A stretch of DNA of 64,000 bases from Escherichia coli (GTDB lineage: Bacteria; Pseudomonadota; Gammaproteobacteria; Enterobacterales; Enterobacteriaceae). The DNA lies in assembly GCF_003018255.1 (NCBI RefSeq), contig NZ_CP027440.1; one strand, written 5' to 3'. Shown in pieces: positions 30,861 to 32,285 of the stretch. A model generated the notes under the pieces. That model saw only the letters and a list, made by a program, of their open reading frames with translations. It searched no databases and was not told where the DNA came from. A program made the position numbers and the translations under genes. Every line of letters begins with the position of its first letter. The stretch's first letter is position 1.

Positions 30861-32285
30861 CTACGCAAGCTTAGGAAAGGTAGCAACTTTATCGCGCTGC
30901 TGGCTTTCCGCGCTTCGCGGAACTATCTGCTTTAGGTCGCTAATGAAGCACTCCTGCCAGTGGTTAATATCGTTTTTCACGATAACGTCCAGCATTTCTG
31001 CATGACGGGAAATACGTTCCGCCAGCGACATAGTCAATGCACGATCCAGCGCAGCTGCAACTTCGTCACGATCGTAGGGATTAACAATTAACGCCGACGT
31101 TAACTCGTTTGCTGCTCCCGCAAATTGCGAAAGAACAAGTACGCCCGGGTTGGCTGGGTCCTGAGCGGCAACATACTCTTTTGCCACCAGGTTCATCCCG
31201 TCACGCAGTGGCGTCACTAAGCCCACGTCAGAGTAGCGGAATATTTTCATCAGTAATTTACGGTCAAAATGCTGATTCAAATAATAAAGCGGCGTCCAGC
31301 CTAATTGCCCGTATTTACCATTAATTCGTCCAGCTTCATTTTCGAGCTGATGACGAATATCCTGATAGGCTTGCACATCACCACGCGACGTTGGTGCAAT
31401 CTGGGTATAACGAATTTTACCATGATGCTGCGGATATTTTTCCAGCAACGCTTCATAGGCGAGAAAACGCTCCGGCAAACCTTTGGAATAATCCAGCCGT
31501 TCGACAGAAAAGATATTTTGTACGTTTTTCAGTTCCGCTTTAAGTTGCGCCAGTTTTGGCGGCAGTGGTCCGGCAGCCTGTTTCGCTATTTCTTTCGGTT
31601 CAATGCCGATCGGGTAAACTTCCGTTCGAAACGCTTTGCCGCAGGCCGTATGGCTTTTTGCGCTACGTGTCGTGACGCGGGTCAGGTTAGAAAGGCAATC
31701 CAGGAACGCCAGACGATCGTTCTCCGTCTGGAAACCCAGCAAATCATAATCACAAAGCTGTTCAAGCAAGGTGTCATATGTCGGCAGCGCGTTGAAGATT
31801 TCCGGCGTCGGGAAAGGAATATGCAGAAAGAAACCAATGCGATTATTCACTCCCCGTTTGCGTAATTCATGCGCAAAGGGCAACAGGTGATAATCGTGGA
31901 TCCAGATAATGTCATCGTCTTGCAACAGCGGCAGTAATTTATCTGCCAGCAACGCATTTACGCGTAGATAGCCATCCCAGGCAGGACGCTGAAATTGCAC
32001 CAGATCGAGCCGATAATGAAAAGCGGGCCAGAGAACGGCATTGGAGAATTTGTTGTAGTATTCGTCAAGGTCCTGTTCGCTGAGGTTAAAAGAGGCCCAC
32101 GTAATGTTACCCTTTTTCACCTTTTTTAGCGGCTGATCCTCATTCCCTGTTTCACCGCTCCAGCCAAACCACAGTCCACCTGCGGCTTTCAGTGCCCCCA
32201 GTATGCCAACGGCAAGGCCACCGGCACTGGCGGCGTGCTCGTCTGGTGGTGCAATCCGGTTAGATACTACGACTAAACGACTCAT
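30861..32285 (-). CDS. otsA: Trehalose-6-phosphate synthase
   Basis: ORF 30861-32294; start placed at [17 protein letters not shown] (474 aa); GT20 family. Confidence 0.96.

Follow-up and report, generated by a model that had tools for sequence, protein, structure and literature searches.

The closest described system is otsBA of Escherichia coli K-12 (b1897–b1896, MG1655), in which araH, otsB, otsA and the convergent uspC follow one another in that order, and otsB (801 nt) and otsA (1425 nt) overlap by 26 nt. According to Stoebel et al. 2009 (PMC2744996), otsB translation begins at +56, counted from the transcription start that Becker and Hengge-Aronis mapped; the same paper is the source for the RpoS dependence and for TGGCGA as the –35 box. 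Two mechanisms of coupling between the translation of neighbouring genes are recognized, i.e., RNA unfolding and termination–reinitiation (PMC12548453, a 2025 review), and gene overlaps longer than –8 are rare (PMC10666635). The searchable full-text literature yielded no experiments on translation, coupling or overlap in otsBA, and the supplements of a tetracycline-inhibited ribosome profiling paper (PMC4909307) hold no entries for otsA or otsB.

Here we describe the same junction in a window of 64,000 nt, the whole stretch of E. coli DNA that was analysed (contig NZ_CP027440.1). Chromosomal context (araH–otsB–otsA–uspC), gene boundaries and junction sequence are those of K-12, and the promoter departs from it by one base, in the –35 box. 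The remaining differences are allelic only: OtsA carries K79 and C215 (Q79 and W215 in K-12), and OtsB differs at four residues. In E. coli strain 104, both proteins have the very same sequence. With regard to residue 215, all other Escherichia loci compared carry tryptophan, strain 104 with its identical OtsA apart. The 26-nt overlap is already known and ordinary, and the curated boundaries of this textbook stress operon hold in this strain.

Boundaries of otsB and otsA

On the minus strand, the otsB frame ends with GAT GAC TAT GAG TCG TTT AGT CGT AGT ATC TAA, and the otsA frame reads GTG ATG ACT ATG AGT CGT TTA GTC GTA GTA TCT AAC, in which the second ATG (32285..32283) opens the peptide MSRLVVV. 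The two genes share 26 nt if the stop codon is included and 23 nt of sense codons only; otsA is out of frame with otsB, whose stop lies 23 nt downstream of the otsA start (Table 1). The program-made listing of open reading frames (ORFs) of the window gives the same ORF ends, and its starts (GTG 32294 for otsA and ATG 33117 for otsB) are merely the earliest codons downstream of a stop at which translation could start. The overlap is a coordinate fact, to which a chance test is not applicable.

The first-pass annotation had placed the otsB stop at 32260 and the otsA start at 32285, with a 26-bp overlap between them, and had proposed a comparison with curated otsBA annotations and an inspection of the ribosome-binding sites. 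The positions are exact by direct reading, and the curated boundaries match: in the RefSeq annotation of MG1655, otsA occupies 1980188..1981612 and otsB 1981587..1982387, which gives a 26-nt overlap and an otsB of 801 nt, and the PGAP annotation of strain 104, the closest genome (99.8% identity), has the same boundaries, overlap and otsB length. The ribosome-binding sites also agree, with AGGAG located 8 nt before the otsA ATG and AAGGAGGAG located 6 nt before the otsB GTG. Both gene boundaries (otsA at 32285 and otsB at 33060) are correct and already present in curated annotation. Of 5426 complete E. coli genomes, 5417 contain the locus, and 5361 of these 5417 have an identical 60-nt junction.

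We note that E. coli GDSC2239PM has lost one base from the TTT run of otsA codons 3–4 (equivalent to ~32277), inside the overlap, and both frames are shifted; there, PGAP calls otsB a pseudogene and places the otsA start further downstream. The missing base may reflect a genuine mutation or a fault in the assembly.

Table 1. Features of the otsBA locus, with positions in the window
Feature	Position	Strand	Description	Basis
otsA	30861..32285	–	trehalose-6-phosphate synthase, 474 aa, 1425 nt, ATG start	ORF, annotation, PDB, Pfam
otsB	32260..33060	–	trehalose-6-phosphate phosphatase, 266 aa, 801 nt, GTG start, TAA stop	ORF, K-12/PGAP length, Pfam, PDB
otsB/otsA overlap	32260..32285	–	otsA codons 1–8 and two bases of codon 9; last eight otsB codons (YESFSRSI) and stop	direct reading
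otsB stop TAA	32260..32262	–	made of otsA codons 8–9 (TCT AAC, Ser-Asn)	
otsA Shine–Dalgarno AGGAG	32294..32298	–	8-nt spacer to ATG; within otsB codons	
In-frame GTG (32294) and ATG (32291) upstream of otsA start	32289..32294	–	rejected as starts	
otsB Shine–Dalgarno AAGGAGGAG	33067..33075	–	6-nt spacer to GTG 33060	
Upstream in-frame ATG of ORF track	33115..33117	–	rejected otsB start; third base 33115 is the published transcription start	
otsBA promoter	33121..33148	–	–35 TGGCGC 33148..33143 (TGGCGA in K-12); –10 TATACT 33126..33121, preceded by C	
Terminator-like hairpin after araH	33162..33189	–	11-pair stem, T-rich tail	consensus scan only

OtsA belongs to the GT20 trehalose-6-phosphate synthases (Pfam Glyco_transf_20, E = 5.5e-155) and is near-identical, over its full length, to E. 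coli OtsA in the PDB entries 2wtx, 1uqt and 1gz5, with residues 1–474 or 2–457 matched. The E. coli structures begin at M1 or S2, and the N-terminal strand is conserved and is ordered from residue 2 in the crystals. In addition, distant, tagged homologues of the Burkholderia type, whose chains are offset by eight residues, have native N-termini that align with residue 1 of the query. The MSRLVVV ATG is invariant across 80 related loci (see below). The start at 32285 proposed by the first-pass annotation is thus backed by annotation, by the spacing from the Shine–Dalgarno (SD) sequence, by structures and by the related loci.

OtsB is a HAD-type trehalose-6-phosphate phosphatase (Pfam Trehalose_PPase, residues 18–231 of 266, E = 1.1e-56), and its alignment with Salmonella OtsB (PDB 6upb, 267 aa, E = 3.6e-129) begins one residue past the GTG start and extends through the C-terminal YESFSRSI. 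The 801-nt length given in the annotations fits the GTG at 33060. This GTG is conserved in all 73 loci with a readable region, where it lies 17 codons before FFDLDGT (21 in Erwiniaceae), and an AAGGAGG-like SD precedes it in most of them, being degenerate in a few. In relatives, an in-frame stop often lies 4–6 codons upstream, which makes the GTG the sole possible otsB start in such loci. The published transcription start maps onto the window at 33115 (33060 + 55); with this +1, the IS10 target GTAAAGC falls at +5 to +11, consistent with the +12/+13 insertion of PMC2744996. Because 33115 is the third base of the ATG at 33117, the upstream ATG is not on the native mRNA. Annotation, SD, structure, published transcription start and relatives therefore agree on the GTG start (MTEPLTET), as had been suggested in place of the upstream ATG. 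As a separate observation, the otsB start codon is GTG and never ATG in all readable loci despite a near-consensus SD, an unusually stable non-ATG start.

Other boundaries would put the otsA start at the upstream GTG or ATG (giving an overlap of 35 or 32 nt) or further downstream (giving none), or the otsB start at ATG 33117 (285 aa). Each of the three upstream codons is in frame with its gene, with no stop in between, and an ATG at –6 relative to the otsA start is present in 34 of the 80 loci. However, the GTG at 32294 overlaps the SD itself and the ATG at 32291 is only 2 nt past it; 41 of the 80 loci have no in-frame start codon upstream of the otsA ATG, and five have TAG at –6. A downstream Met that would abolish the overlap is not available either, since by our own reading of the sequence about 55 codons follow the otsA ATG without ATG, GTG or TTG (none up to about codon 56), and the conserved, ordered N-terminal strand also speaks against such a start. 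The ATG at 33117 lacks an SD and straddles the published transcription start; most relatives either do not have it or have in-frame stops that cut it off. Any of these other boundaries is scarcely credible, and the longest-ORF calls (an OtsA of 477 aa and an OtsB of 285 aa) are wrong, a point to be heeded in annotating these genes and in designing expression constructs.

Promoter and genomic neighbourhood

The –10 element of the otsBA promoter is positioned by our own reading of the sequence, whereas the RpoS dependence and the transcription start are taken from PMC2744996. Upstream, araH/araG occupy 33227..35787 on the minus strand, and the strong terminator-like hairpin that follows araH directly abuts the –35 region of otsBA. 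Downstream, uspC (30426..30854, plus strand) is convergent with otsA, and the stop codons of the two genes are 6 nt apart (30854..30861), leaving no space for separate terminators. A sigma-70 consensus scan for an internal otsA promoter found five sites, against 2.8 ± 1.8 expected, none of which is convincingly placed, and no Rfam family was found in 29500–34500.

Two overlap lengths among relatives

The junction was compared across the best 80 loci from Enterobacteriaceae and Erwiniaceae, with the window counted in the overlap tallies. The overlap is 26 nt in the window and in 74 of the 79 related loci, and 4 nt (ATGA) in the other five, which comprise Yokenella, one uncultured Enterobacteriaceae MAG and three Pantoea-like genomes; no other value occurs. 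The 5′ end of otsA holds a stop in each alternative frame, one provided by nt 2–4 of ATGA (followed by two TAGs in the same frame) and the other by nt 24–26 in TCTAAY. The otsB tail therefore ends at an overlap of either 4 or 26 nt, whichever frame it is in. If the TAA were lost, OtsB would run on for 36 codons before reaching the next stop in the frame of TCTAAY. The two lengths are seen side by side in Mixta (L078 and L079, 26 nt) and Pantoea (L080–L082, 4 nt), which differ by a 5-nt indel located 33–37 nt upstream of the otsA ATG (GAGCAAGACAAGAC versus GA-----ACATGAC).

Three assemblies of the comparison deserve comment for their own sake. L080 is labelled 'Enterobacter cancerogenus M004' and groups with Pantoea by OtsA identity and by junction sequence; the strain is probably misidentified. 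In the assembly that bears the name Chryseobacterium sp. 18061, the otsBA locus is enterobacterial, with an OtsA 85% identical to that of E. coli; contamination or mislabelling is the probable reason. In a Buttiauxella MAG (L047:2470-2513), otsA has neither otsB nor an SD upstream, and what precedes it looks like tRNA arms in reverse complement; a tRNA at this place was considered and dropped, as ARAGORN finds none. The contig may be chimeric, and an assembly artefact is probable.

Within the overlap, variable sites fall almost only on third codon positions of otsA, which are first positions of otsB. Because the variation is at otsA wobble positions, the OtsA peptide is preserved: its N-terminus stays M[SGT]RL[VI]V[VI]SN across loci, while the OtsB tail changes freely. 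Similarly, the SD bases G-12, G-11 and G-9 of otsA are 99% conserved although the surrounding OtsB tail varies. This conservation of the otsA SD and N-terminus, next to a variable OtsB tail, indicates that the end of otsB is shaped by otsA signals, and from the alignments the last otsB codons are evidently dictated by the initiation signals and the N-terminal codons of otsA. The Pfam domain of OtsB ends at residue 231 of 266, and the residues encoded by the overlap lie beyond the catalytic domain.

The T that opens the otsB TAA is present without exception among the 75 loci that overlap by 26 nt, while among the five that overlap by 4 nt this site reads T (three loci), G and A. In addition, four-fold sites vary less inside the overlap than just downstream of it (mean 0.74 versus 1.76 bits, Mann–Whitney p = 0.002), a comparison which covers few sites in related sequences and is indicative only. 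These two patterns hint at some extra constraint on the overlap. The strong conservation of the 26-nt length and of the stop, taken with the reduced four-fold variation, may stem from selection on a coupled arrangement or from a function of the OtsB tail, in which case it would be no passive by-product. A joint reading, which we rate as just short of probable, is that of a junction with two states, in which small indels in the otsB tail, such as the one that distinguishes Mixta from Pantoea, would toggle lineages between overlaps of 4 nt, at which coupling is conceivable, and of 26 nt, with essentially no coupling. The last 8–13 residues of enterobacterial OtsB would then be overprinted as a by-product of the otsA initiation signals and would have no functional role in the phosphatase. 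If the junction does have these two states, the OtsB:OtsA ratio may differ between the 4-nt and the 26-nt lineages. Overlaps of either 4 or 26 nt, set by stops hidden within otsA, provide a small example of constraint on overlap length.

Initiation at otsA and comparison with coupled gene pairs

Considering the locus as a whole, we regard it as quite probable that this is an otsBA operon with the boundaries as annotated and with otsA translated mainly from its own SD. One RpoS-dependent promoter would give a single otsBA mRNA from 33115, with otsB starting at GTG 33060 after a strong SD. The initiation region of otsA, composed of an A-rich stretch, AGGAG, the 8-nt spacer and ATG 32285, is contained in the last ~13 codons of otsB, and otsB terminates at the TAA formed by otsA codons 8–9, resulting in the 26-nt out-of-frame overlap. 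Most initiation at otsA would be by ribosomes that bind its accessible SD directly, the contribution of coupling to otsB being at most minor.

The first-pass annotation had read the overlap as implying translational coupling, and the anatomy of the junction leans against this. In termination–reinitiation, a ribosome that ends otsB at 32260 would back up by 23 nt, be captured by AGGAG and restart at ATG 32285, so that OtsA would track OtsB output. Such a scheme suits two co-directional, overlapping genes that lie in one operon and encode consecutive enzymes of one pathway; it also suits the retention of overlap, SD and stop in 75 of the 80 loci and the reduced wobble variation within the overlap, and both PMC10666635 and PMC12548453 cite phage systems in which ribosomes are reported to scan in either direction across tens of nucleotides. 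The difficulty is the distance. Coupled pairs commonly have spacings of –4 or –1, termination–reinitiation being expected of a stop and a start within a few nucleotides of each other, up to about ±10, and the spacing here is –26. In the reporters of the synthetic operons of Tian and Salis, as summarised in PMC12548453, coupling dropped as the overlap grew and was absent at –25 nt. In native E. coli pairs, most reinitiation is gone within 14–38 nt, being down by 40–80% at +14 nt and nearly all lost at +38 nt (PMC10666635). Moreover, a strong otsA SD in an accessible region permits independent initiation. Tight coupling by termination–reinitiation is, in our judgement, unlikely.

Coupling by RNA unfolding, in which the otsA ribosome-binding site would be sequestered until a ribosome translating the end of otsB opens the structure, finds a point in its favour in the local-folding model, where the spacer between the otsA SD and ATG is predicted to be partly paired and the spacer and start nucleotides have a low unpaired probability. 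However, the same model places the otsA initiation region among the more accessible parts of the transcript (86th percentile), and the 32 nt upstream in this region are 56% A. The 110-nt junction folds at –16 kcal/mol against –18.8 kcal/mol for shuffles, and is thus less stable than these (z = +0.91). A search for a conserved RNA structure at the junction, by consensus folding over 25 genera, returned only –2.7 kcal/mol without compensatory pairs, and the weak consensus fold is located downstream of the otsA ATG, with SD and ATG left uncovered. No inhibitory structure over the otsA ribosome-binding site is predicted by these models, and we consider RNA-unfolding coupling very unlikely.

In sum, the spacing, the accessible SD, the absence of a masking structure and the published distance data favour independent initiation of otsA, and by analogy with other gene pairs as well as from the anatomy of the junction, it is most likely that otsA relies mainly on ribosomes that initiate directly at its own SD. 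Coupling is possible, but the overlap alone does not imply it, and the step from overlap to coupling is unproven and somewhat disfavoured. An overlap is per se no evidence of coupling; where the spacing is –26 nt and the SD is accessible, independent initiation should rather be assumed by default. What the present analysis adds to the known overlap is modest, namely the proposed two-state (4 or 26 nt) junction and the suggested by-product nature of the OtsB C-terminal tail, and it opens no new question.

Among known overlapping pairs, the coat–lysis overlap of phage MS2 (–50 nt), as described in PMC12548453, is likewise a long overlap on the same strand, with the downstream start well inside the upstream gene. 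MS2 is coupled by way of RNA unfolding and relies on inhibitory structure around the lysis start, whereas none is predicted or conserved at otsA. Canonical coupled pairs (ATGA, –4; TAATG or TGATG, –1) resemble otsBA in being co-directional, out of frame and in one operon, with the downstream SD inside the upstream gene. Unlike in these pairs, the otsB stop in the window lies well downstream of the otsA start, at a spacing for which the constructs described in PMC12548453 have no coupling. The canonical ATGA form is itself seen at the otsB/otsA junction of the five relatives, Yokenella, Pantoea and others, that carry the 4-nt overlap.
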